Shown here piece after piece: positions 1 to 17,405 of a stretch of DNA of 17,405 bases. Origin of the DNA: Thermoplasmata archaeon (lineage in GTDB: Archaea; Thermoplasmatota; Thermoplasmata; GCA-020350865); contig CP070751.1 in assembly GCA_020348445.1 (NCBI GenBank), positions 1,223,303-1,240,707 of the forward strand, given 5' to 3'. Position 1 is the first letter of the stretch. The number at the start of each line of letters is the position of its first letter. The notes below the pieces were generated by a model. The model searched no databases. It was given only the letters and a program-made list of their open reading frames with translations, and was not told the DNA's origin. The position numbers were made by a program, and so were the translations under genes.

Positions 1-242
1 CTCCGTGCTCCTTTTAGGAGCACTCAGTTGTTAATTTATTCCAGTGAAAGGTGCTGGGAATCATAAATTCCCAACTTAACGGACCCTCGTCCTACCTCCG
101 GGCGAGGCTTCACTTTCCACCCTCTAGCCTTTCGCCTCTGCGCTTTTGATGTCTCGCTTCGCTCGCCATCTAAATTTTCAAATTTCTTCGAAATCCGAAA
201 ATGGACCTGGTACTATTGGTGAGCCCCTACCTGCTCAGGGCG
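1..242. repeat. Cassette-separating repeat R0, subtype A, left-truncated, carrying both optional inserts
   Basis: Nearly colinear with 4311-4552; ends in ccctacctgctcagggcg. Confidence 0.9.
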
Positions 243-261
243 GGAGGCTCGCTTCGTAGCA

Positions 262-636
262 TTATTCCAAAATAATTACGTTTTTTAGACCTTTAAAATG
301 TTTGTCTTTTGTTAATAATTTAGATTTCATTGAACGTGCGGAAGCATAAATGATTGCATCAATGCTATAAAGACCATGTTCTCTTTTCATATCTGCTCCA
401 AACAATGCGATTTTTGGGTCTAAATCAATTATTGAAGATTGTTCATAAATAAAATCAATTCTACTTTTCCATTTTCTATTCTCTCTTTGATATTTATTTT
501 TAATTTCTAATAATGCAATGCTTGGAGTATATATTGTCTCTTGATTATCAATATATTCTTTGACTATTTGTCCCAGATCTGATCCCGAGAAATACTCAAT
601 CCAAGCACTTGAATCAAATGTTACGGTCATGCTCAT
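262..636 (-). CDS. vapC: PIN-domain (VapC-like) toxin
   Basis: N-terminal FDSSAWIEY, later EI and SIIDL motifs, IDAIIYASA, LLTKDKHF; start may be the Met at 630. Confidence 0.85.
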   Translation of the reverse strand: MSMTVTFDSSAWIEYFSGSDLGQIVKEYIDNQETIYTPSIALLEIKNKYQRENRKWKSRIDFIYEQSSIIDLDPKIALFGADMKREHGLYSIDAIIYASARSMKSKLLTKDKHFKGLKNVIILE

Positions 637-814
637 CCCTAAGATCGCTTAAATCTGTTTGTTTTAACCAAGGATCCGCTCCAAACATGTTCTTGCGTTT
701 TCTTGAAAAATGCTTAGATAATATATCATTTATTGTAACTGATATTCTACGTTTACCATATTCTCTAACAATCTTTTGATATATATCGTCTCTAATCTCA
801 ATTGTAGTTCGCAT
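614..814 (-). CDS. Putative VapB-like antitoxin, 66 aa (MRTTIEIRDDIY...)
   Basis: Small gene overlapping the PIN start; the track ORF to 934 extends into repeat R1, so the ATG at 814 is preferred. Confidence 0.65.
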   Translation of the reverse strand: MRTTIEIRDDIYQKIVREYGKRRISVTINDILSKHFSRKRKNMFGADPWLKQTDLSDLRDEHDRNI

Positions 815-860
815 ACTATCAATAAGGCATATATGCTTATGCCTAATATATACTTTTCGG
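815..860 (-). promoter_or_regulatory. Archaeal BRE/TATA-like promoter with palindromic operator
   Basis: Minus strand aaaagtatata (847-857); inverted repeat aggcata 825-831 / tatgcct 838-844. Confidence 0.55.
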
Positions 861-887
861 TCTAAAAATGCTACTTCGCTCGCCTCC

Positions 888-1098
888 GTTAAGTGACGAC
901 CTCGTTCTTCGCTCTGTTGGGTAATCACCAACAACCGCTAAGGATTACTTCCTAATAAATGCTATTGGTCCAGAAGCAACCCTCCGGCTTAACGGAGCCA
1001 ACCTCCTACCTCCGGGCGAGGCATCACCTTCCACCCTCTAACCTTTCGCTCCTGCGCTGGACCCTGTGCAATCGGTACTCCCCTACCTGCTCGGAGCG
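888..1098. repeat. Repeat R1, subtype A
   Basis: gttaagtgacgacctcgttcttcgctct ... ccctacctgctcggagcg. Confidence 0.9.
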
Positions 1099-1117
1099 GG
1101 CTTGGGTGGATTTACTT

Positions 1118-1375
1118 TTAATAGATATTATCATGATGATCATAATCAAAAATAGTTACGGTCTTACTTTCTTCATCAATTTCATAAACAATTACAAAGG
1201 ATCCTATATGAGCTCTTCTAAGACCATCTAATGGGAATTTAAGTGGTTTAAAATGATATGGATCTTTTAAAATTTGTTTTATCTTTTTTCCAATCCGTCT
1301 TAATTGTTCTTTATCTTTTTTAGCTAACTTCTTAAATATCTTATCCGCTGAAGGCTTGATTTCAAGATTGTACAT
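1118..1375 (-). CDS. relE: RelE/ParE-superfamily toxin
   Basis: MYNLEIKPSADKIFKKL...LKDPYHFKPLK...RRAHIGSFVIVYEIDE pattern, 85 aa, basic. Confidence 0.8.
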   Translation of the reverse strand: MYNLEIKPSADKIFKKLAKKDKEQLRRIGKKIKQILKDPYHFKPLKFPLDGLRRAHIGSFVIVYEIDEESKTVTIFDYDHHDNIY

Positions 1376-1609
1376 TTAATTCAATCCATATCGATCTTCG
1401 AAAGATTTCACTTTAATACTCTTTTCCTTGCGGATTTTCTTGATTTTATCGATATATTCAGGTCTTAGTTCAGGTTCCATCACTTCTTCTTCGTAGATAT
1501 CTACTACTTTTTCAATTGCTTCGGATTTATCTTTAAGACCGTACTGTGCTTTTACAATGTTGAGTACTTGATTAGTGCGATTATCGATATCTATTATAGC
1601 TTTCACCAT
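1376..1609 (-). CDS. Antitoxin, resembles the archaeal DUF2683 family
   Basis: MVKAIIDID..NQVLNIVKAQYGLKDKSEAI..EPELRPEYI; directly upstream of the RelE-like gene. Confidence 0.7.
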   Translation of the reverse strand: MVKAIIDIDNRTNQVLNIVKAQYGLKDKSEAIEKVVDIYEEEVMEPELRPEYIDKIKKIRKEKSIKVKSFEDRYGLN

Positions 1610-1665
1610 ATTAACACCATGTTAATGTCATATATATTCCATATATATTTAATACTTTCGCTAAT
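1610..1665 (-). promoter_or_regulatory. Putative archaeal promoter of the TA cassette
   Basis: Minus strand gaaagtattaaa (1648-1659); direct repeat catatatatt at 1629 and 1640. Confidence 0.45.
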
Positions 1666-1689
1666 ATTTTCGTAAATCCACCCTTCGCC

Positions 1690-2870: not shown

Positions 2871-2895
2871 TCCTCGGAGAGGCCATTTAATTAGA

Positions 2896-3633
2896 TTATT
2901 CTTCTATTCTGCTTTTAATTTCCTTCTGGATTTTTTTATGATATCCTCTGTTATTACTGAATGCTAGAAAAGGAAATGTTCTCCCATCAGTAAGATAAAT
3001 ATTCCCCCGATCCACATTTGATATTTCTTTCCAACGGAATTCATACTTTCGATAGGGGAGAACCAATTCTAATGTATCTTTTCTGTAAACCACCTTATTA
3101 GGTGGTAAGATATATCTAACTCTTCTACCAGATATTTCATCCTTATTAATATATATCCTGTTCTTTTTAGCAATATCAAAAAGAAGATGCTTGCCTCTTT
3201 TCCCAAGCTCTCCTTTTTCTAAAAGAATTCGTTCATTGTATTTGGTAATCAAACAGATAGCCGCAATCCCAGGTATTCCTAAACTCTTATTTTTATAATC
3301 ATTGGGTAAAATTTCAATTATATCCTTATAATCTATTTTTTTCCGCTTATCGCTAAAAAAACCATCTGGTATTTCAAGATCATTTTGATAAAAAATTATG
3401 GGTTTCCTTTTAAAAGCAACATATAATTCCAAAATTGCTACAAGTAATACTATTGGACCTACTACTAAATATAATAATCTCGAAATAAGTTCTGATCCCC
3501 GAAAGTTGGTGCCAGGAATTAGGGCTAAGGAGATAATTAATATGGAAAGGAAAATCAACAAAAATCCAATGAATTTTGAAAGCCAAACATTGTTATAACA
3601 ACGGTAAATAATTTTTTCATTAGATTCATCCAC
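2896..3633 (-). CDS. Hypothetical membrane protein, two N-terminal TM helices plus soluble region
   Basis: 245-aa ORF filling the cassette; hydrophobic stretches FIGFLLIFLSILIISLALI and LLYLVVGPIVLLVAILEL. Confidence 0.7.
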   Translation of the reverse strand: MDESNEKIIYRCYNNVWLSKFIGFLLIFLSILIISLALIPGTNFRGSELISRLLYLVVGPIVLLVAILELYVAFKRKPIIFYQNDLEIPDGFFSDKRKKIDYKDIIEILPNDYKNKSLGIPGIAAICLITKYNERILLEKGELGKRGKHLLFDIAKKNRIYINKDEISGRRVRYILPPNKVVYRKDTLELVLPYRKYEFRWKEISNVDRGNIYLTDGRTFPFLAFSNNRGYHKKIQKEIKSRIEE

Positions 3634-3680
3634 TTTTGCTCACCCCAATAAGGATGGCCTTTCCTCGGACCCTTCGGGCT

Positions 3681-3958
3681 CTTAAGCCCCAACCTTGGCT
3701 CAGTCGTTTTCGGTATTTGTTTGATATAATATAAAACCTACCTTCACTCCCTCGCCAACCACCTCGCCGTGAACATTCGCTGCCGTCACCCAGAGGGTTT
3801 ACTCACTCACATGCGATTGGAGGTTTTTCCGTCTTTGACAGGTGCCACCTCCAACCCGTCGTGCAAACGGCCTTCCCTGCAACTCCGGGCGAGGCATCCA
3901 CCTCCCTCACACCGTTTCGCTGGCTCACCGAAGCCCTACCCCTTCAAGTTCGCCGACG
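3681..3958. repeat. Repeat R4, subtype C (divergent right end)
   Basis: cttaagccccaaccttggctcagtc ... gtgcaaacggccttccctgcaactccgggcgaggcatcc. Confidence 0.85.
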
Positions 3959-3979: not shown

Positions 3980-4192
3980 TCATATCTCTTTCGGTTCATT
4001 AATTCGACGCAAGATTATGATAATAGGAATGATAAATAAGATTATTAAAATAATTCGAATCGTCCATATCACATTTTTATTAGAGGTGTTTAGGAAAAAA
4101 GTTAGGTATAAAAAAATGAACCAAAGGAAAATGTCAATATAGACTAAAGCATCAAAATAATTAATATTTCTTCCATTAAGTTCATCTTCCAT
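3980..4192 (-). CDS. Small hypothetical membrane protein (2 TM)
   Basis: 70 aa; ggtga RBS; fills the cassette. Confidence 0.65.
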   Translation of the reverse strand: MEDELNGRNINYFDALVYIDIFLWFIFLYLTFFLNTSNKNVIWTIRIILIILFIIPIIIILRRINEPKEI

Positions 4193-4211: not shown

Positions 4212-4552
4212 TTAAGTGACGACCTCGTTCTTCGCTCTACCGGTTTTCACCTGTAACCGCTAAGGATTGCTTCCTAATAAATGCTATTGGTCCGGAAGCA
4301 ACCCTCCGGCTTCGTGCTCCCTTCAGGAGCACTTAGTTGTTAATTTATTCCCCTAATAAATGCTGGAAGTCATAAATTCCCAACTTAACGGACCCTCGTC
4401 CTACCTCCGGGCGAGGCTTCACTTTCCACCCTCTAACCTTTCGCCTCTGCGCTTCTGATGTCTCGCTTCGCTCGCCATCTGAATTTTCAAATTTCTTCGA
4501 AATCCGAAAATGGACCTGGTAATATTGGTTCTCCCCTCCCTGCTCGGAGCGA
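4212..4552. repeat. Repeat R5, subtype A with 74-nt and 58-nt inserts (longest copy)
   Basis: ttaagtgacgacctcg ... ccctccctgctcggagcga. Confidence 0.9.
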
Positions 4553-4578
4553 GCGAGGAGCCCCAATTTAATAGATTA

Positions 4579-4815
4579 TTATTTCTTTAGCGTTGATTTA
4601 AGTTGTTTTGGATTTAAATATAGTTCAATATGGCCACAATCTAAGCAAGTTCCACATAGAACTTGTTCACCTGAAAGCATCTTATTTGAAGAACGATATA
4701 ATATGCTCGATCCAGTGAATGCTCCAACTGCAAAGCTTCCAGATGTAACAAGAGATCCATAATCAAGTTCACCGCCACAATAAGAACACTTTTGTGATTT
4801 ATTCTTTGGTTCCAT
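4579..4815 (-). CDS. Small Zn-ribbon protein
   Basis: CSYCGG...CLDCGHIELY (two CxxC); ggtgaggag RBS. Confidence 0.7.
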   Translation of the reverse strand: MEPKNKSQKCSYCGGELDYGSLVTSGSFAVGAFTGSSILYRSSNKMLSGEQVLCGTCLDCGHIELYLNPKQLKSTLKK

Positions 4816-4832: not shown

Positions 4833-5052
4833 TTCAAGTGATGACCTCGTCCTAAACATTCGCTGCGTCGTTTATAGACGTCTCCGCTCACATAGAATTA
4901 CTCCTTTATCGTCTTTTCCATATCATAGTCGTAACTTTTTGGCTTCACGGCTCCTCAGCCTACCAAAAAGCGAGGCATCTCCTCCTCCCCTCTAGCCTTT
5001 CACTCCTGCGCTGGACCCTATACTATCGGTACTCCCCTACCTGCTCAGAGTG
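4833..5052. repeat. Repeat R6, subtype D
   Basis: ttcaagtgatgacctcgtcctaaacattcgctgcgtc ... cccctacctgctcagagtg. Confidence 0.9.
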
Positions 5053-5092
5053 GGCAACATTGGGCACTTTGTTACAATTAATATGTAAAATT

Positions 5093-5752
5093 TTAACTTC
5101 CATATCTAATCGGGTAGTTACTAGCTTTTATGTTAATATTATTGATCTTTTTTTCAATTTCATTAATTCCCTCTAGTAAATTCGCAAACAGTGGATTTCG
5201 ATTTAATTTTTCTTGCGTAATAGGAATTTTAACTTCTTTTATTTCTTTTAAAACTAAATGATATCTTCTAAGATTAAATTCCCTCTTAAATTCAAAGGCT
5301 AATGATTCGGCAGCTTCAAGAACTTCTACCGTCCATTTTCTTGGGGTATCTTTTGGAGTTTTCCAATTGGTATCTTTAAAATCTACATAAAGGCTTTGCT
5401 CTCTAATTATATTTAGGTCTTCAAATATTATAGTTCTTATTGCAAGGTCAATAGCATCTTTACCAAATAAACTTAGATCTGCAAAACTTGCTGTATATTG
5501 TTTCCTTTTATGATTTCTCCAAGTTTTCCAAAAAGTACCCCACTCAATTTTTTGTCCATTATTAATCCATACTGCTGCTAACAATAGTAAGTAAACTTTT
5601 CCAAGTTCTTCTAATGATGATATTGCTATAGCAGTTGCTGTTGAATAACGTCTTTTGCTATATAATCTCCTAGCGTCCTCTGCTAATTTATATCCGTTTT
5701 CTGCACATATACAAGCGCCTTTGATTGCTTCTTCAAATGTTATTTTTGACAT
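5093..5752 (-). CDS. AbiV-family (HEPN) abortive-infection protein, 219 aa
   Basis: LAEDARRL..RYSTA..A...LEELGK, NHKRKQ, REQSLYVDF...WKTP motifs; true start MSKITF at 5752 with aagggg RBS (the track extension to 5884 lies in R7). Confidence 0.75.
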   Translation of the reverse strand: MSKITFEEAIKGACICAENGYKLAEDARRLYSKRRYSTATAIAISSLEELGKVYLLLLAAVWINNGQKIEWGTFWKTWRNHKRKQYTASFADLSLFGKDAIDLAIRTIIFEDLNIIREQSLYVDFKDTNWKTPKDTPRKWTVEVLEAAESLAFEFKREFNLRRYHLVLKEIKEVKIPITQEKLNRNPLFANLLEGINEIEKKINNINIKASNYPIRYGS

Positions 5753-5791
5753 ATTACCCCTTCCCAAATTATTATCGTGCCCAATGTTGCC

Positions 5792-5991
5792 GTTAAGCCC
5801 CATCCCTAAAACCATTATTGTCCTTCGGACATAAAAGTTTTGCCACTGCCCTCCTTCGTTTTGTTGTTTATTGCTAACAACCACTCACGGTTGCTCAGCC
5901 TTCGGCCTCGCAACATCTCCGCTCGGTCGTAACCTCACTCCGAAGCAGAGCTTCCACAGTTGCTTGCGTCGCTAGAAAGCGTTTCGCAGCT
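5792..5991. repeat. Repeat R7, subtype B
   Basis: gttaagccccatccctaaaacc ... gcttgcgtcgctagaaagcgtttcgcagct. Confidence 0.9.
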
Positions 5992-6028
5992 AAGGCGAGG
6001 AATTTGTTATCACTTACTTCCTCGCCTT
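5992..6028. other. Empty (gene-less) cassette: perfect 11-bp inverted repeat around a 15-nt spacer
   Basis: aaggcgaggaa 5992-6002 / ttcctcgcctt 6018-6028, between two complete repeats. Confidence 0.8.
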
Positions 6029-6281
6029 CAAGCCCCGTCCGCTCATTGCGCTGGCTTATTTCACTATCATTCTCTACGCCTGCTCGTTCGCCCCTAAAAC
6101 CATTATTGTCCTACGAACATAAAGGTTTTGCCACTCCGTTCTGCGCTTTGTTGATTATTGCTATCAACCGCTAAGAATTGCTCGGATTTCATCCTCGCAA
6201 CTCCTCGTTCGGGTCGTAACCCTCACTCTGAGCAGAGCTTCCACAGTTGCTTGCGTCAATTGAAAATTGTCCTCGCAACTA
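6027..6281. repeat. Repeat R8, subtype B with an extra left module
   Basis: ttcaagccccgtccgctc...cccctaaaaccattattgtcc ... tgtcctcgcaacta. Confidence 0.85.
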
Positions 6282-6340
6282 AGACGACTCCCTATTGTTA
6301 ATAACGAATGGAGGCACTTAGCTTATTCTCCCCAAACCCT

Positions 6341-6392
6341 CCACCACACCATTGCGTGCCTGTGCTGAAGCCATCCCCCTTCTACTCGGCAC
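6341..6392. repeat. Degenerate subtype C-like right-end fragment inside the cassette
   Basis: ccaccacaccattgcgtgcctgtgctgaagccatcccccttctactcggc. Confidence 0.6.
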
Positions 6393-6408
6393 TTATAGAT
6401 TAAAAATG

Positions 6409-6795
6409 TTACCAAGATATTACTTTTAATGCAGTAACTCTTTTGAAATGATTGGTATCCCTTGTTATCAGTGAGCAACCATTTACTTTTGCTATTCCTG
6501 CTATCATAGCGTCTCTCATTGGTATTTCTTTTCCTTTTATCCTTAAATCTGCATAGATCCTAGCTGCTTCATCAGCTGCGAATCTGTTAAACTCGAATAT
6601 ATGAAATCTCGATAAAAGAAGTTGAGCAGCTTCTAATTTCTTTTTACTTAATTGATTAGCACCAGCTAATAGTTCAAAAAAAGAGATGGAGGTCGTGAAA
6701 TATTCTTTATTTTCATCAAGTTCGTTAACTAACTTTCGAACTTTCGGTACATCGTTTAAAACATCGATTAAGAAATCAGTATCTACACATCTCAT
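6409..6795 (-). CDS. vapC: PIN-domain VapC toxin
   Basis: CVDTDFLIDVL, SFFELLAG, DAMIAGIA, LITRDTNHF. Confidence 0.9.
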   Translation of the reverse strand: MRCVDTDFLIDVLNDVPKVRKLVNELDENKEYFTTSISFFELLAGANQLSKKKLEAAQLLLSRFHIFEFNRFAADEAARIYADLRIKGKEIPMRDAMIAGIAKVNGCSLITRDTNHFKRVTALKVISW

Positions 6796-7028
6796 TAGCT
6801 ACCCAACCTTCTTTTCAGTTCATCGTCGCTGTCTTCCCAGGATTTCTTAATATCTTCGAATATTTTCCGCTCTTTTTGAGATAGTTTCCATAAACCTAAA
6901 CATTCCTTCAATGTTCCATGTTTACTTGTCAACCTAAGTGCTAAGTTCGAAAAACTTTCACGCTCTCTTTTTTCCCTTATTAATGCTTCATATGCAGATT
7001 TCGTGATAGTAATTGTTTTAGTTACCAA
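6795..7028 (-). CDS. vapB: VapB-family antitoxin (DUF217-like)
   Basis: TKTITITKSAYEAL.REKR.RESFS.L..RL; cggtga RBS; TTG start; stop/start overlap with vapC. Confidence 0.8.
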   Translation of the reverse strand: MVTKTITITKSAYEALIREKRERESFSNLALRLTSKHGTLKECLGLWKLSQKERKIFEDIKKSWEDSDDELKRRLGS

Positions 7029-7075
7029 TGAATCACCGTTTAAACATATATGTATGTTTAGATATAAATATTTCG
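7029..7075 (-). promoter_or_regulatory. TATA-like promoter with palindromic operator
   Basis: Minus strand gaaatatttatat; inverted repeat taaacat 7041-7047 / atgttta 7054-7060. Confidence 0.55.
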
Positions 7076-7128
7076 GTTCAATTATCTAAAGTTCGTGCCT
7101 CCAGCCTCGCTTATTTTCGGGAGTCGCC

Positions 7129-7340
7129 TTTAAACCCCATCCCTACAAACCTTTAATGTGTTTCCATACTTAAACGGTTCGCGCCACTCCCCCAGCGGGC
7201 CGGTTGCTTCTTGTCCTCGATATATTTTGCTGGAAATATAACTCTTACTGTCGTCGCAACATCTCCGCTCGCCTCGTCGGCTAGCTCCGATAGGGAGCTT
7301 CCACAGATGCTAGCGTCAATGGGACATTGTCTTCGCATCG
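7129..7340. repeat. Repeat R9, subtype B
   Basis: tttaaaccccatccctacaaacc ... gggacattgtcttcgcatcg; only copy with AAA instead of AAG at the left end. Confidence 0.9.
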
Positions 7341-7390
7341 AAGGCGAGGGGGCTATTTAATTGCTTTTCGGAGTTTGGCTTTATACCTTA

Positions 7391-7449
7391 ACCTCCCCTT
7401 CCCATTTCGATTCTGCGCTGGCTCCATCCCCAACACCTGCTCGAATCGG
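7391..7449. repeat. Degenerate right-end fragment of an A/C/D-like repeat inside the cassette
   Basis: acctccccttcccatttcgattctgcgctggctcc...cacctgctcgaatcgg. Confidence 0.55.
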
Positions 7450-7470
7450 AAAATTCATAATTAAGATTAA

Positions 7471-8105: not shown

Positions 8106-8160
8106 AATATCAACTCAACGTATGAATATATGAAATTCATACATTATATACTTTTGCATT
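8106..8160 (-). promoter_or_regulatory. BRE/TATA-like promoter with perfect 8-bp palindromic operator
   Basis: Minus strand aaaagtatataa (8144-8155); gtatgaat 8120-8127 / attcatac 8135-8142. Confidence 0.6.
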
Positions 8161-8206
8161 AAATTATTAAAAGCCAATCTCCTTTTGTTTAAATTGCCCC
8201 CTCGCC

Positions 8207-8661: not shown

Positions 8662-11241
8662 ATGAGAAGATTTACATTTGTTCTTATTGTACTTGTACTT
8701 AACATGACAATTGTCGAACTTGCGACAATGGTACCGACCGTTCCCGCCGAGCCTGGGCTACCTCTTGAGTCCATGGCCACATATCATCTGAGCTACAAGG
8801 GAAGGTACGAGCACCAGCCAAAAGGTCCCGATCACCTACTGGGCCTTGAGATGGTCAATGGGGAGCTCTTGGTCACAGGTTATCTTGGCGCCTACTTTGT
8901 GGACTGGAGCCTTGCCAACTCGTCCTATCTTACCACGTACATCTCACATTTCAAGCCCAAATTCAACATTACGACCAACCGGGATGATGCTCCAGTTCCT
9001 CCCGAATCAGAAAATTATTCCCCAAGTTTCTACGGATCGGTGACTTATGACGCTGGCGGTGGAACCAAGTATATATACATTAATGCCAGGTACGTCGGCA
9101 TCTATATCCTGTCAACGAGAGGGACCAATCTCAAATACCAAGGCCGGATAATACAGAACCGTCGTTTTTCCGAGGGTTTGGCAATAGACGGCGATTATCT
9201 ATATGCCGCCCACCATGCGGACGGCATCGAGATCTACGACCTGTCCGCTAATCCCGCAAGTCCAACGGTCGTCGGGAACATCACGACCGGCTTCACTGAT
9301 GCCTGGGCCGTCTTCCCGGCTGGTAACACACTTTACGTGGCTGACGGTCGGGGCGGTCTTAAGGTGGTGGACATATCGAACAAGGCCAATCCTTCCATAA
9401 CATGGTCTGAAGACCCGACCACAAGCCCAGGCAACATGATGGACGTCGTGGCCGTTGGAGACTACGTGTATGGAGCCTGTGGTGGTCAGGGCATAGCCGT
9501 CTACAAGAGAGACGCATTCGATCAGAGGACAGTCACCATGATCAATGGATCGTCCCAAGCCTTGGCACGAATGGCCCAGGAGGACATTGCCGTGGCAGCC
9601 CGGTCATGGATACATGTCATACGTCCCGACGGTGCTGGCGGCTTTGATATCCTTGCCTCCGAGAGGATGATAAGGAGGGCCGGAGACAAGGCACTCATGG
9701 GGCGAATAGCCCAGGACATACTAGTTGTGGGAAAGCAGGTAGTCTCTGCCTCCTGGGACCAGGTAGATGTGTACGAGCTCATGGATAACCCGTCAGACAA
9801 CCAACCTGATGTCCTCTTCGGCAAGCAGATGGTCAACTTCGGTGTCGACGGACGGTCTGAATCCATAAAGATAGAGAACCAGGGCACGGCCAACCTGAAA
9901 TTACACCAACCCCAGATAGAGTCCAAGGGTAAATTCCAGGCCACCCTTTCAAAGGGATGGGTCCCACCAGGTGACTTTGCTTGGTTGACCATCACCCACG
10001 ACGGACGAGGGAACGATACCAGAGCCAATATAACCATCCAGACGAATGATCCCGACGAGAATCCCATCAGGTTCATGGCCTATGGTAGGACAAGATATGT
10101 CGATATCGGAGAGCCGATGTACAACTTCACTCTTGACTCGGGTCAGGGTGACTTCAGCGGACCTACCCCAGAATGGACCTTCACCAACATTAACGTGTCA
10201 GACCGAGTCGGCGAGAGGGTACCTGTATTGGAGACACCGCTCCCCGACCTGACCATGGAGGAGGACAACGTCACCAGTGGGATCGATCTACTGAACGTGT
10301 CTGGCCACTTCACATCAGGAACCACTGGAAAAGTAACTCTCTATGTGATAGTTGGTTCTTGGTGCCCAGCATGTCCTCCAGCCTTCACATCCATTGGATA
10401 TGACTTCTATCAGAGATATCAGCATCGCGACGATTTCGATGTCTATCTCATGAGTAAGATGGAGAACAATGGCACAATGATGCATCTCATGGAGAAGACG
10501 AGGATTCCTGGAGGCATGATATTCGACGAGGTCGGGAATATTACCAATCGTACCCTCAAACAATACGATGTCGGCTTACCTTTTGGTAGGAGCTACATCG
10601 TCGACCACAAGGGCATAATCAGATCCGTGGGAAGGGGCTACAATCCCCATGGTGCATGGAAGGTTCTTGACGGGATTTTTGCCGAGATTGACAATGCAAC
10701 AGACCTAAGGTACGAGGTCTCATATGAGGAGAACCCATTGATACTGGAAGCCTCAGGTGGGAACGGACCATTATTCTCCTTCATTCAAAACCAACCGAAT
10801 TGGATCGGTAGCCTATCGTTCAAGGTCAGAGCCCTGAACTCGGGCGAGGACTGGATTCCCAACAATTCAGATGATATGAGCCTGGAAAGCAATCTCTTCA
10901 ATGTGACAGTCCTTCCAAAAGTCCTTTCATCAATGATTAACATCGACCCCAACACTCTCAACCTAAAATCCAAAGGCAGATGGATAACCTGCTATATCAA
11001 TCTAAATGACCCTTACGATGTCAACAACATAGACATCAGCACTATTCTTCTTGAAGACACAATCCCAGCTGAATGGGGTGACATTCAAAGCGACACGCTT
11101 ATGGTCAAATTCGACAGAAGCGATGTTGAGGATATGCTTTCTATTGGAACTTACAATCTGAAGGTTACTGGTGAGTTGACAGATGGGACCTCGTTTGGGG
11201 GATATAGTGATGAGATCAGGGTTATTGATCCTGGGAAATAG
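8662..11241 (+). CDS. Large secreted multidomain protein: signal peptide, LVIVD-like beta-propeller repeats, Ig-like domain, thioredoxin/AhpC-like CxxC domain, cadherin-like segment, C-terminal domain
   Basis: Hydrophobic N-terminus; repeats such as YLYAAHHADGIEIYDLS and LYVADGRGGLKVVDIS; SWCPAC; ggaggga RBS; clearly more GC-rich than the cassette ORFs. Confidence 0.85.
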   Translation: MRRFTFVLIVLVLNMTIVELATMVPTVPAEPGLPLESMATYHLSYKGRYEHQPKGPDHLLGLEMVNGELLVTGYLGAYFVDWSLANSSYLTTYISHFKPKFNITTNRDDAPVPPESENYSPSFYGSVTYDAGGGTKYIYINARYVGIYILSTRGTNLKYQGRIIQNRRFSEGLAIDGDYLYAAHHADGIEIYDLSANPASPTVVGNITTGFTDAWAVFPAGNTLYVADGRGGLKVVDISNKANPSITWSEDPTTSPGNMMDVVAVGDYVYGACGGQGIAVYKRDAFDQRTVTMINGSSQALARMAQEDIAVAARSWIHVIRPDGAGGFDILASERMIRRAGDKALMGRIAQDILVVGKQVVSASWDQVDVYELMDNPSDNQPDVLFGKQMVNFGVDGRSESIKIENQGTANLKLHQPQIESKGKFQATLSKGWVPPGDFAWLTITHDGRGNDTRANITIQTNDPDENPIRFMAYGRTRYVDIGEPMYNFTLDSGQGDFSGPTPEWTFTNINVSDRVGERVPVLETPLPDLTMEEDNVTSGIDLLNVSGHFTSGTTGKVTLYVIVGSWCPACPPAFTSIGYDFYQRYQHRDDFDVYLMSKMENNGTMMHLMEKTRIPGGMIFDEVGNITNRTLKQYDVGLPFGRSYIVDHKGIIRSVGRGYNPHGAWKVLDGIFAEIDNATDLRYEVSYEENPLILEASGGNGPLFSFIQNQPNWIGSLSFKVRALNSGEDWIPNNSDDMSLESNLFNVTVLPKVLSSMINIDPNTLNLKSKGRWITCYINLNDPYDVNNIDISTILLEDTIPAEWGDIQSDTLMVKFDRSDVEDMLSIGTYNLKVTGELTDGTSFGGYSDEIRVIDPGK

Positions 11242-11328
11242 AAAAATTAGAAACGACAATCCCCTCCTTTTACTATCAAACGAACGCAGGCCTCGGAATG
11301 GCATTCAGCTACAGCGTGATATACCATT

Positions 11329-11537
11329 TCTAAGTGACGACCTCGTTCTTCGCTCTACTTGTTTTCACCCGTAACCGCTAAGGATTACTTCCTAATAAAT
11401 ACTATTGTTGTGGAAGTAACCTTCCGGCTTAACGGACCCTCGTCCTACCTCCAGGCGAGGCTTCACTTTCCACCCTCTAGCCTTTCGCCTCTGCGCTGGA
11501 CCTGATACAGTTGGTTGGCCCCTACCTGCTCGAGGCG
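11329..11537. repeat. Repeat R11, subtype A
   Basis: tctaagtgacgacctcg ... ccctacctgctcgaggcg. Confidence 0.9.
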
Positions 11538-11593
11538 GGCGAAGGCTCTAAGAAGTATCGGTGGGGGCACTTAATTCCTCATTATTATAAACA

Positions 11594-11926
11594 TTATACT
11601 GGCATATTAACTTTATAAATCTCTTCACGTTTATATAGATACAAAGCAAAAATTATTATTGGTATTATAAATGCTAAGATTCCCCATAATTGAGGTGACC
11701 ATGCTACAACACGGGAATGTTTACGCCTTGGTGGTGCATTACCTGCATTAATTTTTTTAGCATCTGAAAAGATCATAATACTGGTAAATAAATGGTAGAA
11801 GGTAAATATTCTACCAAATCCTATAATTAATATACAAATCGCATCCATATTTAATAATATCGAAAATAAAGTTGAATATATTAAAGCTATAAAAAACACT
11901 TCGAGAATAAATAAGAGAATTAGCAA
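11594..11926 (-). CDS. Hypothetical membrane protein; frame is open upstream to a possible ACG start at 11971
   Basis: Three hydrophobic segments; SPQLWGILAFIIPIIIFALYLYKR C-terminus. Confidence 0.65.
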   Translation of the reverse strand: MLILLFILEVFFIALIYSTLFSILLNMDAICILIIGFGRIFTFYHLFTSIMIFSDAKKINAGNAPPRRKHSRVVAWSPQLWGILAFIIPIIIFALYLYKREEIYKVNMPV

Positions 11927-12009
11927 ATTATTTTTCTTATATACGTATCTTTTTCGTTTGGGAATATTCGTGCCCCCTACCTTCCAATATAAATCGCCTT
12001 CGCCTCGCC

Positions 12010-12226
12010 TTTAAGCCCCAGCCCTACAAACCTTTAATGTATTTCCATACTTAAACGGTTTGCGCCACTCCTTCAGTGTACCGATTGCTCCTAGTCCTAT
12101 GATTATACATCATCGAGTATATCAATGTTGACTCTCGTCGCAACTTCTCCGCTCGCCCCGTTGGCTCACTCCGAAGAGGAGCTTCCACAGATGCTTGCGT
12201 CAATGGGTCATTGTCCTCGCATCGAA
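12010..12226. repeat. Repeat R12, subtype B
   Basis: tttaagccccagccctacaaacc ... tgtcctcgcatcgaa; very similar to R17. Confidence 0.9.
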
Positions 12227-12254
12227 GTCGGTCGGGTGTTGACTTTATTGAAAA

Positions 12255-12521
12255 TTATTTTCTATATCCTCGACCTCGTTTAAAAACTTCAATTACTCTT
12301 ACAGTTTTTTTCTCAATTAGATAAATAATTCGATATTCTCCAACTCTAAGACGGTGTTTTTGAGGTTTAGTTCCACTTAAAGGTGATATATCTGCATTCG
12401 GGCGAGCTTTTATTGGATCTTTTTCTAATTCTTTTAAACCTGCTTTTATCCGTTTTTGTACGCTTTTATTGAGAGAATTAAATATCTTTTGAAAAGTTCT
12501 TGAAACTAGAACTTTGTACAT
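12255..12521 (-). CDS. relE: RelE/ParE-superfamily toxin
   Basis: MYKVLVSRTFQKIFNSL...LEKDP...HRLRVGEYRIIYLIE...VIEVFKRGRGY. Confidence 0.9.
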   Translation of the reverse strand: MYKVLVSRTFQKIFNSLNKSVQKRIKAGLKELEKDPIKARPNADISPLSGTKPQKHRLRVGEYRIIYLIEKKTVRVIEVFKRGRGYRK

Positions 12522-12706
12522 TATAATTCGTCCAATGGAATAAATTCATCTTCTTCAAGAATCTTGTTCCATCTAGCATCTAGCTTCTTCCAGCTAGCTT
12601 CTTTAATTAATTTATTAATTACCTCATCATAACTCTCACCCTTCTCTCCTAATTGTCGCAGTAACTCCTTAGTTTCATGCGTTACAGCTACAGTTGTCGT
12701 TGTCAT
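12521..12706 (-). CDS. Putative antitoxin (RHH-like)
   Basis: TTVAVTHETKELLRQLGEKGESYDEVINKLI; acidic C-terminus; stop/start overlap with relE. Confidence 0.75.
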   Translation of the reverse strand: MTTTTVAVTHETKELLRQLGEKGESYDEVINKLIKEASWKKLDARWNKILEEDEFIPLDEL

Positions 12707-12770
12707 CTATAACACCTATAGAGCATATAGAAGTTATATTATTTATAGTTTATGCTATAAAAAGTTTACA
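12707..12770 (-). promoter_or_regulatory. Putative TATA-like promoter/operator of the TA cassette
   Basis: Minus strand ctttttata (12756-12764); inverted repeat agcata 12722-12727 / tatgct 12751-12756. Confidence 0.4.
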
Positions 12771-12795
12771 TCAAAATCGTCAACACCCTCCCTCC

Positions 12796-13061
12796 TTAAG
12801 TGAAGACCCCGTTCTTCGCTCTATTGTCTATCACCATCAATCGCTAAGGATTACTCCCTATTTGGTTTTATCGTTGAGGGAGTAACTTTTTTGCTTAACG
12901 GACCCTCGTCCTACAAAAAAGCGGGGCTTCTTTCTCCGCCCTCTAACCTTTCGCTCCTGCGCTTCTGATGTCTCGCTTTGCTCGCCATCTGAATTTTCAA
13001 ATTTCTTCGAAATCCGAAAATGGACCTGGTACTATTGGTACTCCCCTACCTGCTCGAGGCG
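12796..13061. repeat. Repeat R13, subtype A variant with the 58-nt insert
   Basis: ttaagtgaagaccccgttcttcgctct ... ccctacctgctcgaggcg. Confidence 0.9.
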
Positions 13062-13086
13062 GGAGGCTTGCTACGGAGAAATTTCC

Positions 13087-13602
13087 TTATATTTTAGTAG
13101 ATCCACTACTCAGATAGTCTGCGAGAGTATATACATTGAATCTACCGCTTAGATATGATGTGATTTCATTTAATTCAGGTATTGAATCAGAACTCTTTTT
13201 TGAAATCCATATCCTGGTATAATCAGGATTAGGCTGTGATTCCTTGGCTATATACAAGTTAGTCCTTATCTCAATGAGTTCAAATCTATATTTACCCGGA
13301 TCAAAATAATAATCTTTCATTTTTTCAGTTAGTTGATATTTTATTTTATTATTTATGAGATAGGTTTCTATCGTAGAAATCACTTCTTCAATCTGTCTAT
13401 CAATTACTATCTGCTCCCATCTCCCAGTCCCAGTAGAGAATGTAAATAGAACAATGAATATTATTACTAAAACTATTAAGATAATAAATAGATCTGTCCA
13501 AGCTTCATACAATGATGAATATAAAATAATTGAAATTGGAATGACACCAATCAGTAAAATGATTGCTATCCTTTTGGCTATTTCTTTATTTATTTCTCTC
13601 AT
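13087..13602 (-). CDS. Hypothetical membrane protein (2 TM plus soluble domain), 171 aa
   Basis: Start MREINK at 13602 after a ggagg RBS; the track extension to 13632 lies in the inverted repeat/R14. Confidence 0.7.
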   Translation of the reverse strand: MREINKEIAKRIAIILLIGVIPISIILYSSLYEAWTDLFIILIVLVIIFIVLFTFSTGTGRWEQIVIDRQIEEVISTIETYLINNKIKYQLTEKMKDYYFDPGKYRFELIEIRTNLYIAKESQPNPDYTRIWISKKSSDSIPELNEITSYLSGRFNVYTLADYLSSGSTKI

Positions 13603-13627
13603 TGAAATTTCTCCTCCGCTCGCCTCC

Positions 13628-13899
13628 TTCAAGCCCCAACCTTGGCTCAGTCGGTCTCAATATGCTCTTACGATTCTTTAAACCTTTCGTCTTCCTTTGC
13701 CAACCACCTCGCCGTGAACATTCGCTTGTGTTGTCCAAAGACATACCCGCTCACATGCGATTATTCCTTTTAGCGTCTCTAGTACGAGCCAGTCATAACT
13801 CGTCGTGCAAACGGCCTTCCCTGCAACTCCGAGCGAGGCATCCACCTCCCCACACCATTTCGCTCCTCCGCTGAAGCCCTACCCCTTCTGCTCGGAGCG
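13628..13899. repeat. Repeat R14, subtype C
   Basis: ttcaagccccaaccttggctcagtc ... ccctaccccttctgctcggagcg. Confidence 0.9.
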
Positions 13900-14409
13900 G
13901 GAGACATCGGTTTCTAATTGATATTTGCCCTGAAATGTTTTTATCTCACATTTTGATTCTAAAAATTTCAATGCATTCTTTGATATCTGCCAAATTCTTA
14001 CGAGCTTATCTTGATATTTTATCTTTATTTTTGGTGTAAGATCGCCATACCATAAATATTGCTTTGTTGTGCGTTCTGGGATCATGATGTATTCAATATC
14101 AGCATATTTTATAAATTCTTTTTTCAAAGGATTTCTATACAAAAGAATTCCATTTTCATAGTATTTGATCCCACGTTTATAATAATTAATAAAACCTAAA
14201 ATAGCAGTAAATAAAAAAAAGATTACTGGTGCATAAAGTAGAAAGTCGTTCCATAAATCTCCCTTGAATAATGATTCGTCAATAGTCAAGTAGAGATAAT
14301 TTAAGTAAACAATTTCAAATATAATTGACACTACTAAAATCATAAAATATATCTTACGATTTTCATTAGTCATAACAAATGGACCTTTATCAATATCATT
14401 AACATCCAT
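13879..14409 (-). CDS. Hypothetical membrane protein (2 TM); stop codon lies inside R14
   Basis: 176 aa; C-terminus TDVSRSEQKG is encoded by the inverted repeat and repeat end. Confidence 0.7.
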   Translation of the reverse strand: MDVNDIDKGPFVMTNENRKIYFMILVVSIIFEIVYLNYLYLTIDESLFKGDLWNDFLLYAPVIFFLFTAILGFINYYKRGIKYYENGILLYRNPLKKEFIKYADIEYIMIPERTTKQYLWYGDLTPKIKIKYQDKLVRIWQISKNALKFLESKCEIKTFQGKYQLETDVSRSEQKG

Positions 14410-14461: not shown

Positions 14462-14732
14462 TTAAAGCCCCAACCTTGGCTCGGTAGTCAATCGCTTTGC
14501 TAAGATTTATTATTATCGCTCTTTCCTCCCTCTCCAACCACCTCGCCGTGAACATTCATTACCGTCATCCAGAGGATGTACCCATTCACATGCGATTGGA
14601 GGCTTTTCCGTCTATGACATGTGCCACCTCCTACCCGTCGTGCAAACGGCCTTTCCTGCAACTCCGGGCGAGGCATCCGACCTCCCTTAACCTTTCGCTC
14701 CTCCGCTGGCCCTACCCTACCTGCTCGGAGCG
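14462..14732. repeat. Repeat R15, subtype C
   Basis: ttaaagccccaaccttggctc ... ccctacctgctcggagcg. Confidence 0.9.
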
Positions 14733-14743
14733 GGAGGTGGCAA

Positions 14744-15130
14744 CTAAGAATTCAATCTTTTTATTTGTGAATATGCTCTTAGAAAAGGAATAAATAAAAG
14801 GAAAACACCAGGCAAAACTAGAATAAAATAGAGTGTCACATTCACTAATAGTGCTATTGATAGAGACAATATGATCATAACAACTCCTACAATGAATACA
14901 ATTCTATCAATTTTTGATCCTAAAAATGTCTCATTATCAATGGGATTAGATTGAATTAAAGGAATCAAGATGAATATAAAGCTTAGAATAAAACCAACTC
15001 CGGCTAAAATTAAAAAAGCATTGCGTTTTATAATATCGAAGTTATTTTGTTGAATATAAATAAATATTCCAAATATAACAAATGGAATTACTATCCCCGT
15101 ATAAAGAAACATTTGTTGTGATTTATTCAA
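14744..15130 (-). CDS. Hypothetical membrane protein (about 4 TM)
   Basis: 128 aa, strongly hydrophobic, TTG start, fills the cassette. Confidence 0.7.
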   Translation of the reverse strand: MNKSQQMFLYTGIVIPFVIFGIFIYIQQNNFDIIKRNAFLILAGVGFILSFIFILIPLIQSNPIDNETFLGSKIDRIVFIVGVVMIILSLSIALLVNVTLYFILVLPGVFLLFIPFLRAYSQIKRLNS

Positions 15131-15184
15131 AGTTAGCCCTTTTACGATTCTATTCCCTCCTCTTTATTATTCGTTGCCACCTCC

Positions 15185-15402
15185 TTCAAGTGATGACCTC
15201 GTCCTAAACATTCGCTGCGTCAATTACTGACGTCAACGCTCACATAGAATTACTCCCTTATCGTCTTTTCGATTTGCGGTCATAACTCCTCGGGCCCAAC
15301 GGCCACCCTGGACCTCAGAGCGAGGCATCTCCTCCGCCCCTCTAGCCTTTCGCTCCTGCGCTGGACCCTGTACTATTGGTACTCCCCTACCTGCTCGGAG
15401 CG
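15185..15402. repeat. Repeat R16, subtype D
   Basis: ttcaagtgatgacctcgtcctaaacattcgctgcgtc ... cccctacctgctcggagcg. Confidence 0.9.
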
Positions 15403-15452
15403 GGAGGCGGAACTTTTTATAAAGTCGGGATGCTACTAAAGAGATTACTCAA

Positions 15453-15818
15453 TTAACTAAATGATGAAATGTAATTATTGATTCCCTCTTCAATCCTTTT
15501 AATATATTTACCACCGACAACCAACCCCCAAGTCTTATAACTCACATTTGATTTTGTTTCGTACATAATCAAAAATACTGATTGAATTATCGTTGAATGT
15601 AAACCTGTTTTATCTACTAGCTTATTCATTTCACTTATAGTATTTTCATTTAAATTATTCTTAACTAACAGAATGATTGATGCACCTGATTCTCTTGTGA
15701 ACCATTTACTTTTATATCTTTTAGTAATATACGTCCGAACTATTTCCTTAATTTTCATTAGATCATCAATGGAATCAACCCTTAAATCTGTTAAATCTAT
15801 GATAATTGCCACATACAT
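15453..15818 (-). CDS. Hypothetical soluble protein
   Basis: 121-aa ORF, AT-rich, no family recognised; about 140 bp AT-rich leader upstream. Confidence 0.6.
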   Translation of the reverse strand: MYVAIIIDLTDLRVDSIDDLMKIKEIVRTYITKRYKSKWFTRESGASIILLVKNNLNENTISEMNKLVDKTGLHSTIIQSVFLIMYETKSNVSYKTWGLVVGGKYIKRIEEGINNYISSFS

Positions 15819-15995
15819 TGTAATTTTCTTTTCCTTATAAAAAACACTTATAATATTAATCTCCTCATATTTTTCTCCATCAATTTTTTTAAAAATTTAT
15901 ATCTTTGAGTTTATTTTCAATTTCATTTACTAAAGTTTGATACATAAATTATACCTCCTGTTACGCATCCCTTTTATGAATTTCGTTCCGCCTCC

Positions 15996-16212
15996 TTCAA
16001 GCCCCATCCCTACAAACCTTTAATGTGTTTCATACTTAAACGGTTTGCGCCACTCCTTCAGTGTACCGATTGCTCCTAGTCCTATGATTATACATCAAAG
16101 AGTATATCAATGTTCACTCTCGTCGCAACTTCTCCGCTCGGGCCGTTTCCCTCGCTTCGAAGAGGAGCTTCCACAGATGCTTGCGTCAATTGGAAATTGT
16201 CCTCGCATCGAA
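15996..16212. repeat. Repeat R17, subtype B
   Basis: ttcaagccccatccctacaaacc ... tgtcctcgcatcgaa. Confidence 0.9.
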
Positions 16213-16221
16213 GGTGAGGCT

Positions 16222-16449
16222 CTAAATATTCTCGGCTGTATCTATTTTTTTCTCATTACATGTTTTATACAATCTAATGTAAATGGCATTCATTGCAGTG
16301 AGCGTTAAAATAATTACGATAAATTGACCGATATGTAATATATGTGTATATACATCTTCCACACCATATTTAGTTAAAAGACCAAGAGACATACCTATAA
16401 TTACAAAACTTGGTCCCAGTAAAGACCATTTCGATATTTTTACGCTCAT
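16222..16449 (-). CDS. Small hypothetical membrane protein (2 TM)
   Basis: 75 aa; ggagg RBS; fills the cassette. Confidence 0.65.
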   Translation of the reverse strand: MSVKISKWSLLGPSFVIIGMSLGLLTKYGVEDVYTHILHIGQFIVIILTLTAMNAIYIRLYKTCNEKKIDTAENI

Positions 16450-16502
16450 AGATCATTCCTCCACTTAATTCAAGATACAGCCTCGCTTTTATTCGCCTCG
16501 CC

Positions 16503-16711
16503 TTCAAGTGAAGACCCCGTTCTTCGCTCTGCTGTCTATCACCATCAACCGCTAAGGATTACTCCCTATTTGGTTTTATTGTTGTGGGAGTAACTTTTTT
16601 GCTTAACGGACCCTCGTCCTACAAAAAAGCGGGGCTTCTTTCTCCGCCCTCTAGCCTTTCGCTCCTGCGCTGGACCCTGTACTATCGGTACACCCCTACC
16701 TGCTCGGAGCG
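16503..16711. repeat. Repeat R18, subtype A variant without inserts
   Basis: Near-identical to R13 apart from the 58-nt insert. Confidence 0.9.
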
Positions 16712-17215
16712 GGCGACTCCCTTAGTCTTTTTTCGGCTGGAGGTCCTTTTATTTATTCTATTTTCAATTTCTCTTATCTCTTGGATATTATTGTCTTTTA
16801 TTGGGCCAATTGATACAACAGTATATTTGTGCCCACGAAATCGGAATCCATATTTCTTTAAGTTTATTTTAAAGTTTTTTTCATACAACAAAAAACTATG
16901 AATGTCATGAGATAGAATATGTTGTGGGATAAGTTTATAATTGATTCTATTTTCCTTTAATATATTCTCAATATCTTTTCGTACAATTTTATAATCCAAA
17001 GAGATATATCTTTTTTCCCATCCTCGCTTTTTATAATTTTCATGTGAAAACCATAGAAAAAATACTCCCCAAAATAAAGCCGTAATAAATGCTCGTGTTA
17101 AAAGAACATTTAATGTTAATACATACCATAAGGCTAAGATAGCGCCAAATAGGGTAAGAAATAGTGTAAATAGAATAAATTTGATAGAATAATTCTTCCA
17201 ATGCTTTGACCTCAT
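16682..17215 (-). CDS. Hypothetical membrane protein (2 TM); stop codon lies inside R18
   Basis: 177 aa; C-terminus GVARSEQVGVYR is encoded by the inverted repeat and repeat. Confidence 0.65.
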   Translation of the reverse strand: MRSKHWKNYSIKFILFTLFLTLFGAILALWYVLTLNVLLTRAFITALFWGVFFLWFSHENYKKRGWEKRYISLDYKIVRKDIENILKENRINYKLIPQHILSHDIHSFLLYEKNFKINLKKYGFRFRGHKYTVVSIGPIKDNNIQEIREIENRINKRTSSRKKTKGVARSEQVGVYR

Positions 17216-17261
17216 AATCTAACTTCCATGCCTCCAGCCTCGCTGATAATCGGGAGTCGCC

Positions 17262-17405
17262 GTTAAGCCCCATCCCTAAAACCATTATTGTCCTTCGGAC
17301 ATAAAGGTTTTGCCACTGCCCTCCTTCGTTTTGTTGTTTATTGCTAACAACCACTCACGGTTGCTCAGCCTTCGGCCTCGCAACATCTCCGCTCGGTCGT
17401 AACCT
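17262..17405. repeat. Repeat R19, subtype B, right-truncated
   Basis: Matches 5792-5935 with one mismatch over 144 bp. Confidence 0.9.

Follow-up and report, generated by a model that had tools for sequence, protein, structure and literature searches.

To our knowledge, no established platform other than the integron stockpiles and shuffles single-gene cassettes, and integron chemistry, in which a tyrosine recombinase acts on folded attC DNA, has been treated as the defining solution. Integrons and clusters of attC sites lacking integron integrases (CALINs) exist in archaea, the integrons described there having canonical IntI and attC (Ghaly et al. 2022, PMC9668308). Here we analyze a 17,405-bp stretch of DNA from a Thermoplasmata archaeon (CP070751.1, positions 1,223,303 to 1,240,707; the window), which holds a one-directional array of small genes separated by long, structured repeats. 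The best-supported reading of this array is that it belongs to a platform that is integron-like in function and mechanistically closest to the peel-and-paste transposition of IS200/IS605 elements. From its anatomy and its association with a Y1/HUH transposase, TnpA, we lean toward single-strand DNA cassette capture by this dedicated enzyme, a mechanism that we infer by analogy, and, as part of the same joint reading, toward the window being an orphan stretch of array whose enzyme would be encoded at the heads of such arrays.

The window is one entire contig of a metagenome-assembled genome (MAG; designated G000, with other genomes, loci or records, and families labeled G, L, and f) that totals 5.16 Mb at 41.5% GC, is 82% complete, and consists of about 350 contigs linked by runs of 100 Ns. 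It contains 20 co-oriented GC-rich repeat units of about 200 to 340 nt, here called X, whose sense strand is the minus strand of the window; 19 of the 20 have a complete 3′ end, and one X is cut at each contig end. An earlier note on this DNA had described 20 repeats alternating with 19 slots (the stretches between X units), 17 of them with co-oriented genes, and the direct-repeat search, blastn, and nhmmer on which our repeat calls are based agree on this count. The array had been seen to run off both ends; as the window is a whole contig, the assembly therefore broke inside the repeats. Of the 17 slots with minus-strand genes, three hold PIN/VapB-type pairs, two hold ParE-type pairs, one holds an AbiV-HEPN protein, and the others hold small membrane proteins or proteins of unknown type; one further slot holds a plus-strand gene for an 859-aa LVIVD/redoxin surface protein (8662-11241) and one is empty. 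The X units have a GC content of 45-56%, versus about 30% in the genes and slots, and are mosaics of two main types, A and B, that share a 5′ module (M5) and a 3′ terminal motif. Within the MAG they occur only in five or six arrays and are not scattered genome-wide in the manner of miniature inverted-repeat transposable elements (MITEs), and no canonical attC was found beside an IntI. A tRNA/tmRNA scan of the window found none. No nucleotide-level duplicate of any window cassette was found in the MAG or its congeners, and because of this the mobile unit cannot be defined from within-MAG duplicates.

Much of this layout is shared with integrons. Both systems have one-directional arrays of small cassettes rich in toxin-antitoxin and defense genes, a single folded single-strand site per cassette, an enzyme gene and a conserved primary site at the array head, lineage-specific sites (compare the VCRs of Vibrio), and a part of the site stem that lies beyond the gene, comparable to the 6 nt of the attC R′ box. 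The machinery differs. No integron integrase was found in the 82%-complete MAG, where the best match to TIGR02249 scores 25.5 bits against a cut-off of 265, and the only two matches to the tyrosine recombinase family PF00589 are fragmentary, lie on unrelated contigs, and are not near an array. The repeats had been reported to lack RYYYAAC...GTTRRRY ends and to have two ends that are not complementary to each other, and both observations hold; a crude regular-expression and pairing scan for these boxes returned 2 pairs versus 3.6 expected by chance, none with adjoining pairing. GTTAAGC and GCTTAAC strings were considered as attC R boxes and rejected, their relative order being wrong and their frequency no higher than chance. 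The X units, at 200-340 nt, are multi-hairpin and multi-branched, whereas attC is a single hairpin of 57-141 nt, and it is the gene-sense strand that folds here; the array also has cassette-specific arms of 9-24 bp, a promoter in most cassettes, and a linked enzyme that is an HUH/Y1 nuclease instead of a tyrosine recombinase. An attI-like arrangement exists by analogy only, in the conserved site of about 110 nt that follows tnpA and is directly followed by cassettes. Long contigs show two array borders, and no recombinase was found at either; the neighbors there are housekeeping genes (GatE, an aminotransferase, a cyclophilin, and others) and a 656-aa open reading frame (ORF) with no family match.

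The array is not an integron. A CALIN with very diverged attC sites and its IntI elsewhere, or an array served by another recombinase such as a Xer-type enzyme, would account for the integron-like layout and the toxin-antitoxin- and defense-rich cargo, and it gains some room from the existence of archaeal integrons and CALINs (PMC9668308) and from the fact that the MAG is just 82% complete. Against the undetected integrase and box pairs, the two stray recombinase fragments, the size and branching of the units, and a Y1 TnpA rather than a tyrosine recombinase at the array heads in at least 10 loci, we consider this explanation most improbable. Of the two possibilities raised in the earlier note, a highly diverged integron class is unsupported, while a distinct cassette-shuffling platform gains support from the absence of a detected IntI, the Y1/HUH TnpA clade at array starts, and the conserved primary site.

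Each of the 19 complete X units has (T/G)CACTT or GGGGCTT as its terminus, and an arm starts after a further 1-3 nt. In one pair of X units (5786-5935 and 17256-17405) that are 99% identical over 150 nt, identity ends at ...GGGGCTTAACGGC, just ahead of the private arm and a few bases past CTT. The M5 module at the other end has the layout CGCUCC-GAGCAG-(variable hairpin)-CCAGCGCA-GGAGCG-AAAGG. Over 32 copies drawn from five genomes, the closing helix of M5 is paired in 98.4% of cells, as compared with 35-54% in slid controls, and shows double, compensatory changes in five of its six pairs, a result matched by 0 of 500 shuffles. When folded with DNA parameters, the sense strand outperforms the antisense strand in 16/16 X units by a mean of 4.4 kcal/mol, and numerous hairpin loops are C-GAA-G or C-GUA-G triloops. 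RNAalifold recovered sparse consensus structures from full-length A and B alignments because the X units are mosaic and gappy, and our statistics therefore rest on the M5 helix and the arms. Five X units carry a 58-nt insert, ATTTTCGGATTTCGAAGAAATTTGAAAATT...GGCGAGCRAAGCGAGACATCA, at the same point inside M5, which resembles a small nested element or an additional, optional hairpin (located at 114-251, 4423-4560, and 12933-13070 on the minus strand of the window, L005:2878-3015, and L006:1513-1650).

The second structural feature belongs to the cassettes themselves. A cassette-specific inverted repeat brackets every cassette, with an upstream arm (U-arm) a few bases past the end of the upstream X and a downstream arm (D-arm) just past the stop codon, each 9-24 bp long. 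In 40-nt windows placed by the conserved X boundaries, the mean U/D duplex energy was −27.8 kcal/mol for the cognate pairs of the 19 slots versus −13.4 kcal/mol for 342 non-cognate pairs (permutation p<5e-5), and the cognate partner ranked best of 19 in 14/19 cases when each U was compared with all D and in 16/19 when each D was compared with all U. The plus-strand gene is also bracketed by arms, in the polarity of the array, and the empty slot is an arm hairpin alone. Arm helices were also considered as bulge-helix-bulge motifs of archaeal splicing, which was rejected since those inspected are continuous helices without a 3-4-3 bulge pattern.

In most cassettes, a TATA-like box and a GGTGA/AGGTG Shine-Dalgarno sequence separate the U-arm from the start codon, and T-runs follow several cassette stop codons. 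With a promoter and Shine-Dalgarno sequence within their arms, most cassettes are therefore self-contained expression units, and their initial description as mostly promoterless was wrong. Three cassettes (c3, c8, and c9, numbered by ascending window position) carry an extra M5-like module between the stop codon and the D-arm, inside the arms (1907-1976, 6336-6402, and 7389-7457, minus strand). All three precede B-type X units, and the modules may be remnants of older sites or nested cassettes.

These structures could also be read as sense-strand RNA. X would then act in processing, stability, or regulation, the arms would form long-range helices that loop out the ORFs in the manner of rRNA processing stems, and the array would be operon-like. 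This idea is in keeping with the sense strand's compensatory changes and G.U-compatible pairs, with its better folding, and with the presence of GC-rich elements in an AT-rich setting. However, when both strands of the complete window were compared with the covariance models of Rfam 15, there were 0 matches at E<=1, and cassette mRNAs would not span both arms given the TATA-like and Shine-Dalgarno sequences between U-arm and start codon and the T-runs after several stops. The gene on the opposite strand has its arms as well, and the elements are linked both to an enzyme of single-strand DNA and to a conserved junction at which homology is lost, as described below. A structured RNA was in fact our first reading, prompted by apparent UUCG and GNRA loops; it was downgraded when the supposed UUCG loop turned out to be a 6-bp stem with a CUU loop (GCUCCG-CUU-CGGAGC) and many loops proved to be the triloops named above, was weakened further by the promoters within the arms and the antisense gene with arms of its own, and now seems to us decidedly unlikely.

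The enzyme in question came from a search of the MAG for Y1/HUH transposases. TnpA of G000 (137 aa, L007:10049-10462) matches PF01797 at 110 bits, NF033573 at 128 bits, and the TnpA of IS608 (2A6M) with E 6e-26, and its HUH motif (EDHVHIF) and tyrosine motif (NYIASQ, YxxxQ) are intact and kept across the clade. In L007 the gene is co-oriented with, and 1.2 kb upstream of, an X at the contig end, with one bracketed cassette between them. The ordinary IS200 of the MAG is a different entity, present as two identical copies away from the arrays, with 33% identity to TnpA. A direct join of the window to the tnpA contig was considered and is not supported, since the X units cut at the two contig ends do not have the same sequence.

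In a survey of 151 genomes of the class, in which M5 was called by model R1 and close TnpA relatives were defined by E<1e-35, M5 was found in 24 genomes and close TnpA relatives in 19, with 18 genomes having both. The same six families account for M5 and for the close relatives, other families having only distant IS200 matches and no M5. Physical linkage is stronger evidence than this co-occurrence. In six loci (L007, L014, L019, L022, L023, and L024, from G000, G002 twice, G005, G024, and G131), the first M5 follows TnpA in the same orientation at a distance of 0.4-1.7 kb, and TnpA stands, in either orientation, at the border between a GC-rich core and an AT-rich repeat array in L017, L025, L027, L028, L030, and L033 (from G035, G062, G053, G080, G096, and G012). 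An HUH nuclease was among the enzymes that the earlier note had thought might lie at array ends, and an IS200-type Y1/HUH clade is indeed present there in G000 and at least nine other genomes from six families. TnpA identity follows host distance, at 80-90% within the genus, 62% to the sister family, and 45-52% to other families, and tnpA is mostly single-copy, which together fit a kept gene rather than a roaming insertion sequence (IS). A contig-level scan with TnpA gave only three close loci.

Divergent from tnpA and beside it in L007 is a truncated Y1 paralog of 114 aa (9532-9876, minus strand; G000 4214531-4214875) that has a degenerate HUH motif (NHVR) and is without the C-terminal tyrosine helix. 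This pair is kept in G001, G003, G002, and L020, where the paralog is 38-49% identical to TnpA, and the truncated protein may be a dead partner subunit. L020 (CP070825.1:3278373-3298777), whose record is titled ‘Candidatus Aminicenantes bacterium’, carries the tnpA and dead-paralog pair at 78% amino acid identity, reflecting either a mislabeled or chimeric bin or a cross-domain transfer.

Directly after tnpA is a conserved site of about 110 nt, consisting of ...TAAGGGCGGGGT, an AT-rich palindrome, and then ...CGTGACTT. G000 and G002 have this site in common, and their sequences part right after CTTAAAGGCGA. The same site design is found in G053 and G117, members of one genus of family f21, and in G080 of family f23, with divergence right after CGTGACTTGGG. 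The X units of f21 and f23 likewise terminate in GTCACTT, and one junction motif therefore marks both the tnpA-adjacent site and every X. Between congeners, gene content shows complete turnover from the CTT junction onward. Every junction follows ...CTT, and this is where homology is lost, both from genome to genome and from cassette to cassette; no insertion was observed. A tRNA-like gene is located between tnpA and the primary site in G053 and G117 (L027:8490-8590 and L029:5190-5290).

Two cassettes of the window have relatives in tnpA-linked arrays of other families. The ParE and DUF2683 cassette c2 has a homolog in family f9 (L035) with 76-79% amino acid and 75% nucleotide identity, and the PIN and antitoxin cassette c1 has one in family f23 (L025) with 61-65% amino acid identity, while the TnpAs of these genomes are only 47-52% identical to that of the MAG. 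Homology of c2 extends from right after CTT through the promoter and both arms (GGATTTAC / GTAAATCC) and ends just past the D-arm, and the X units flanking the c2 homologs upstream and downstream are of different, lineage-specific types. In the c1 homolog the promoter/operator palindrome is kept and the arms are wholly different yet complementary (GGGGTGTTCT / AGAACACCCC). Arms that are conserved in c2 and changed but still complementary in c1 argue for selection on pairing and for the movement of cassettes between arrays.

If X rather than the cassette were the moving part, X could be a non-autonomous IS200-derived element, similar to palindrome-associated transposable elements (PATEs), MITEs, or repetitive extragenic palindromic (REP) sequences, that TnpA multiplied between the immobile genes of a variable island. 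The link to TnpA applies equally to this explanation, the mosaic, lineage-specific nature of the X copies is what multiplication within a genome would produce, and M5 is spread over many contigs in G103 and G138. Insertion of X, however, cannot create arms that pair across each gene, the plus-strand gene included, and in this MAG X is confined to its five or six arrays. Nor does this explanation sit well with the complete gene turnover between congeners from the CTT junction onward or with homologous cassettes that retain their own arms and promoter and not their X. We therefore regard such an element as unlikely.

Returning to single-strand cassette capture, a possible sequence of events can be drawn by analogy with the peel-and-paste mechanism of IS608. 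The arms would pair across the cargo on the single-stranded sense strand, bringing the upstream CTT junction beside the downstream X and holding both cassette ends together. TnpA would then make one cut 3′ of CTT and another at the opposite end of the cassette, giving a single-stranded circle, which would re-insert 3′ of another ...CTT, either at the conserved site adjacent to tnpA or at any X end, and the outcome would be head-to-tail, one-directional arrays. Two variants of this model can be envisaged. In the first, the cassette would comprise the arm-to-arm segment and the downstream X, so that each X would regenerate the CTT target and X would be homogenized within the genome. In the second, the cassette would be the arm-to-arm segment only, and X would be a resident landing pad. 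The tnpA-adjacent site shares just its terminal motif with X, which favors the first variant, in which X moves; lineage-specific X units beside homologous cassettes favor the second, in which X is resident.

This scheme has much in common with IS200/IS605 elements (IS608, ISDra2, and PATEs). TnpA is a clear member of the family, with its HUH, tyrosine, and YxxxQ motifs; folding of the DNA is strand-specific, and no direct target duplications are seen; the short conserved junction sequence, CTT, is comparable to the TTAC target of IS608; and units are stacked head to tail. The differences are that tnpA here is a mostly single-copy gene, rather than a multi-copy IS, whose place at a genomic border is fixed and whose flanking site is conserved, that the putative mobile units hold unrelated cargo and no transposase, that their ends are mutually pairing, cassette-specific arms and not two conserved subterminal hairpins, and that a structured spacer of 200-340 nt lies between units. 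A second point of comparison is offered by REPtrons, in which a REP-associated tyrosine transposase (RAYT) is paired with REPs or bacterial interspersed mosaic elements (BIMEs) or with REP doublets forming hairpins (REPINs). In both, a single-copy Y1 enzyme that looks domesticated is encoded next to the structured repeats that are its presumed substrates. REPs, however, are palindromes of 20-40 nt that occur genome-wide without cargo, whereas the long repeats here delimit cassettes in a few arrays, and the motifs of TnpA are of IS200 type (DHVH, YxxxQ), not those of RAYT class 2 (motif table in PMC6006769). The RAYT subclasses are bacterial, archaea being reported with only subclass 1.1, which is the ordinary IS200 type (PMC6006769).

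Several observations weigh against capture by TnpA. IS200/IS605 ends are defined by two subterminal hairpins, which the cassettes lack; the conserved hairpins are found in X, beyond the arms, and the cassette ends are the mutually pairing, cassette-specific arms. G.T wobbles and structural covariation fit a sense-strand RNA equally well as single-stranded DNA. The window contig encodes no TnpA, and the array embedded in a 141-kb contig has no tnpA near it; conversely, TnpA occurs without an array within 10 kb in G001 and in record L020, and G103, G138, and G145 (74-83% complete) have M5 with no close TnpA found. The six families may share ancestry, in which case co-occurrence may count few independent events. 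Homologous cassettes with unrelated X units imply that X stays behind or is homogenized within the genome. Exact-protein look-ups of two window proteins for population variants returned no copy on record elsewhere, and we saw neither an excised circle nor an empty site nor any presence/absence polymorphism.

Weighing these points together, we see an evenly balanced case for a broader proposal, that some Thermoplasmata families own a second, independently evolved cassette-capture platform, in which a vertically kept Y1/HUH enzyme would place promoter-bearing, single-stranded cassettes into a primary site and at folded-spacer ends, with the arms as a synapsis device and with exchange between families. 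In the literature on archaeal integron-like systems, HUH/IS200 elements, and cassette arrays, we found no description of such an arrangement. If the proposal is true, cassette capture evolved more than once, here with an HUH single-strand nuclease and quite different sites, and a major route of gene flow and defense-gene turnover would be added in archaea. It would also explain why attC-based tools miss such islands and would supply a small enzyme for inserting single-strand DNA at a defined landing site, one that might be programmable. As a structural idea, arms specific to each cassette are new, and they are testable in vitro.

The individual features of the window, all on its minus strand except for cassette c10, begin with an A-type X (1-243) whose 3′ end is cut by the contig end. 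Cassette c1 (262-934) encodes a PIN toxin (262-636) and an upstream small antitoxin-like ORF, with the U-arm GGAGGCGAGCGAAGTAGCA just below 891 and the D-arm TGCTACGAAGCGAGCCTCC at about 243-261. Its promoter region (850-880, minus strand) contains the palindrome GGCATAAGCATATATGCC, which is kept in the homolog from another family (L025, about 5110-5140) and is likely an antitoxin operator. After the next A-type X (891-1099; M5 at 1028-1107, terminus ...GTCGTCACTT at 891) comes c2 (1100-1692), in which a ParE toxin (1118-1375) and a DUF2683 antitoxin (1376-1609) with their own TATA and Shine-Dalgarno sequences lie between arms at 1672-1683 and 1104-1115 (GGGTGGATTTAC / GTAAATCCACCC). A B-type X (1693-1888, terminus GGGGCTT at 1693) separates this from c3 (1889-2673), which encodes a 135-aa ORF of unknown function (1996-2403; arms 2654-2672 / 1889-1907). 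Beyond an A-type X (2674-2871), c4 (2872-3683) encodes a 245-aa membrane protein (2896-3633; arms 3654-3670 / 2870-2886) and is followed by an X of A subtype 3 (3684-3951, terminus GGGGCTT). The 70-aa membrane protein of c5 (3980-4192) and the 78-aa Cys-rich, zinc-ribbon-like protein of c6 (4579-4815) are separated by an A-type X (4214-4552) that has the 58-nt insert within its M5 and a second insert. Following another A-type X (4836-5053), c7 (5053-5794) encodes the AbiV-type HEPN protein between perfect 15-bp arms (5777-5791 / 5053-5067).

The empty slot (5993-6029), with U-arm AAGGCGAGGAA, a 15-nt loop, and D-arm TTCCTCGCCTT, is situated between two B-type X units (5795-5992 and 6030-6280). 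Two toxin-antitoxin cassettes come next: c8 (6281-7131) combines a PIN toxin (6409-6795) with a VapB antitoxin (6795-7028; arms 7119-7130 / 6281-6292), and c9 (7341-8208), on the far side of a B-type X (7132-7341), combines a PIN toxin (7471-7863) with a MazE/AbrB antitoxin (7860-8105) inside 20-bp arms (8189-8208 / 7341-7360). A diverged B-type X (8209-8524) and an A-type X (11332-11538) then flank c10 (8525-11331, plus strand), the cassette of the 859-aa LVIVD-repeat/redoxin protein, whose arms (11255-11269 / 8525-8539) keep the array polarity. The 110-aa membrane protein of c11 (11539-12012; ORF 11594-11926, arms about 11996-12010 / 11538-11552) is followed by a B-type X (12013-12225) and by c12 (12226-12797), with a ParE/RelE toxin (12255-12521), a DUF7557/VapB-like antitoxin (12521-12706), and arms at 12779-12788 and 12234-12243.

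An A-type X with the 58-nt insert (12798-13062) leads to c13 (13062-13630), with a 181-aa membrane protein and 24-nt arms (13604-13627 / 13062-13085), and two X units of A subtype 3 (13631-13900 and 14465-14733) flank c14 (13879-14409), with a 176-aa membrane protein. A 128-aa membrane protein is encoded by c15 (14733-15187; 19-nt arms 15166-15184 / 14733-14751) and, past an A-type X (15188-15403), a 121-aa ORF (15453-15818) by c16 (15403-15998; arms 15985-15995 / 15403-15413). The last units are a B-type X (15999-16211), c17 (16222-16449) with a 75-aa membrane protein, an A-type X (16506-16712), c18 (16713-17264) with a membrane protein of about 170 aa whose ORF call (16682-17215) overruns into X, and a B-type X (17265-17405) with its 5′ end cut by the contig end.

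Elsewhere in G000, a second, older-looking array (3733235-3755626; L001-L003) lies inside the 141-kb contig and is flanked by GatE and an aminotransferase. Its partial B-type X units are 1-4 kb apart, and its cargo is larger (BNR and PD40-like secreted proteins), with some genes on the opposite strand. The 656-aa ORF mentioned above (L004:11131-13101, plus strand), for which neither Pfam nor NCBIfam gave a match, is in convergent orientation to the distal end of a different array in the MAG. Finally, the C-terminal segment of about 100 aa of the LVIVD/redoxin protein (10920-11241, plus strand) recurs in at least 14 other genes of the MAG at 71-80% nucleotide identity and is probably a shared surface-anchor or sorting domain.

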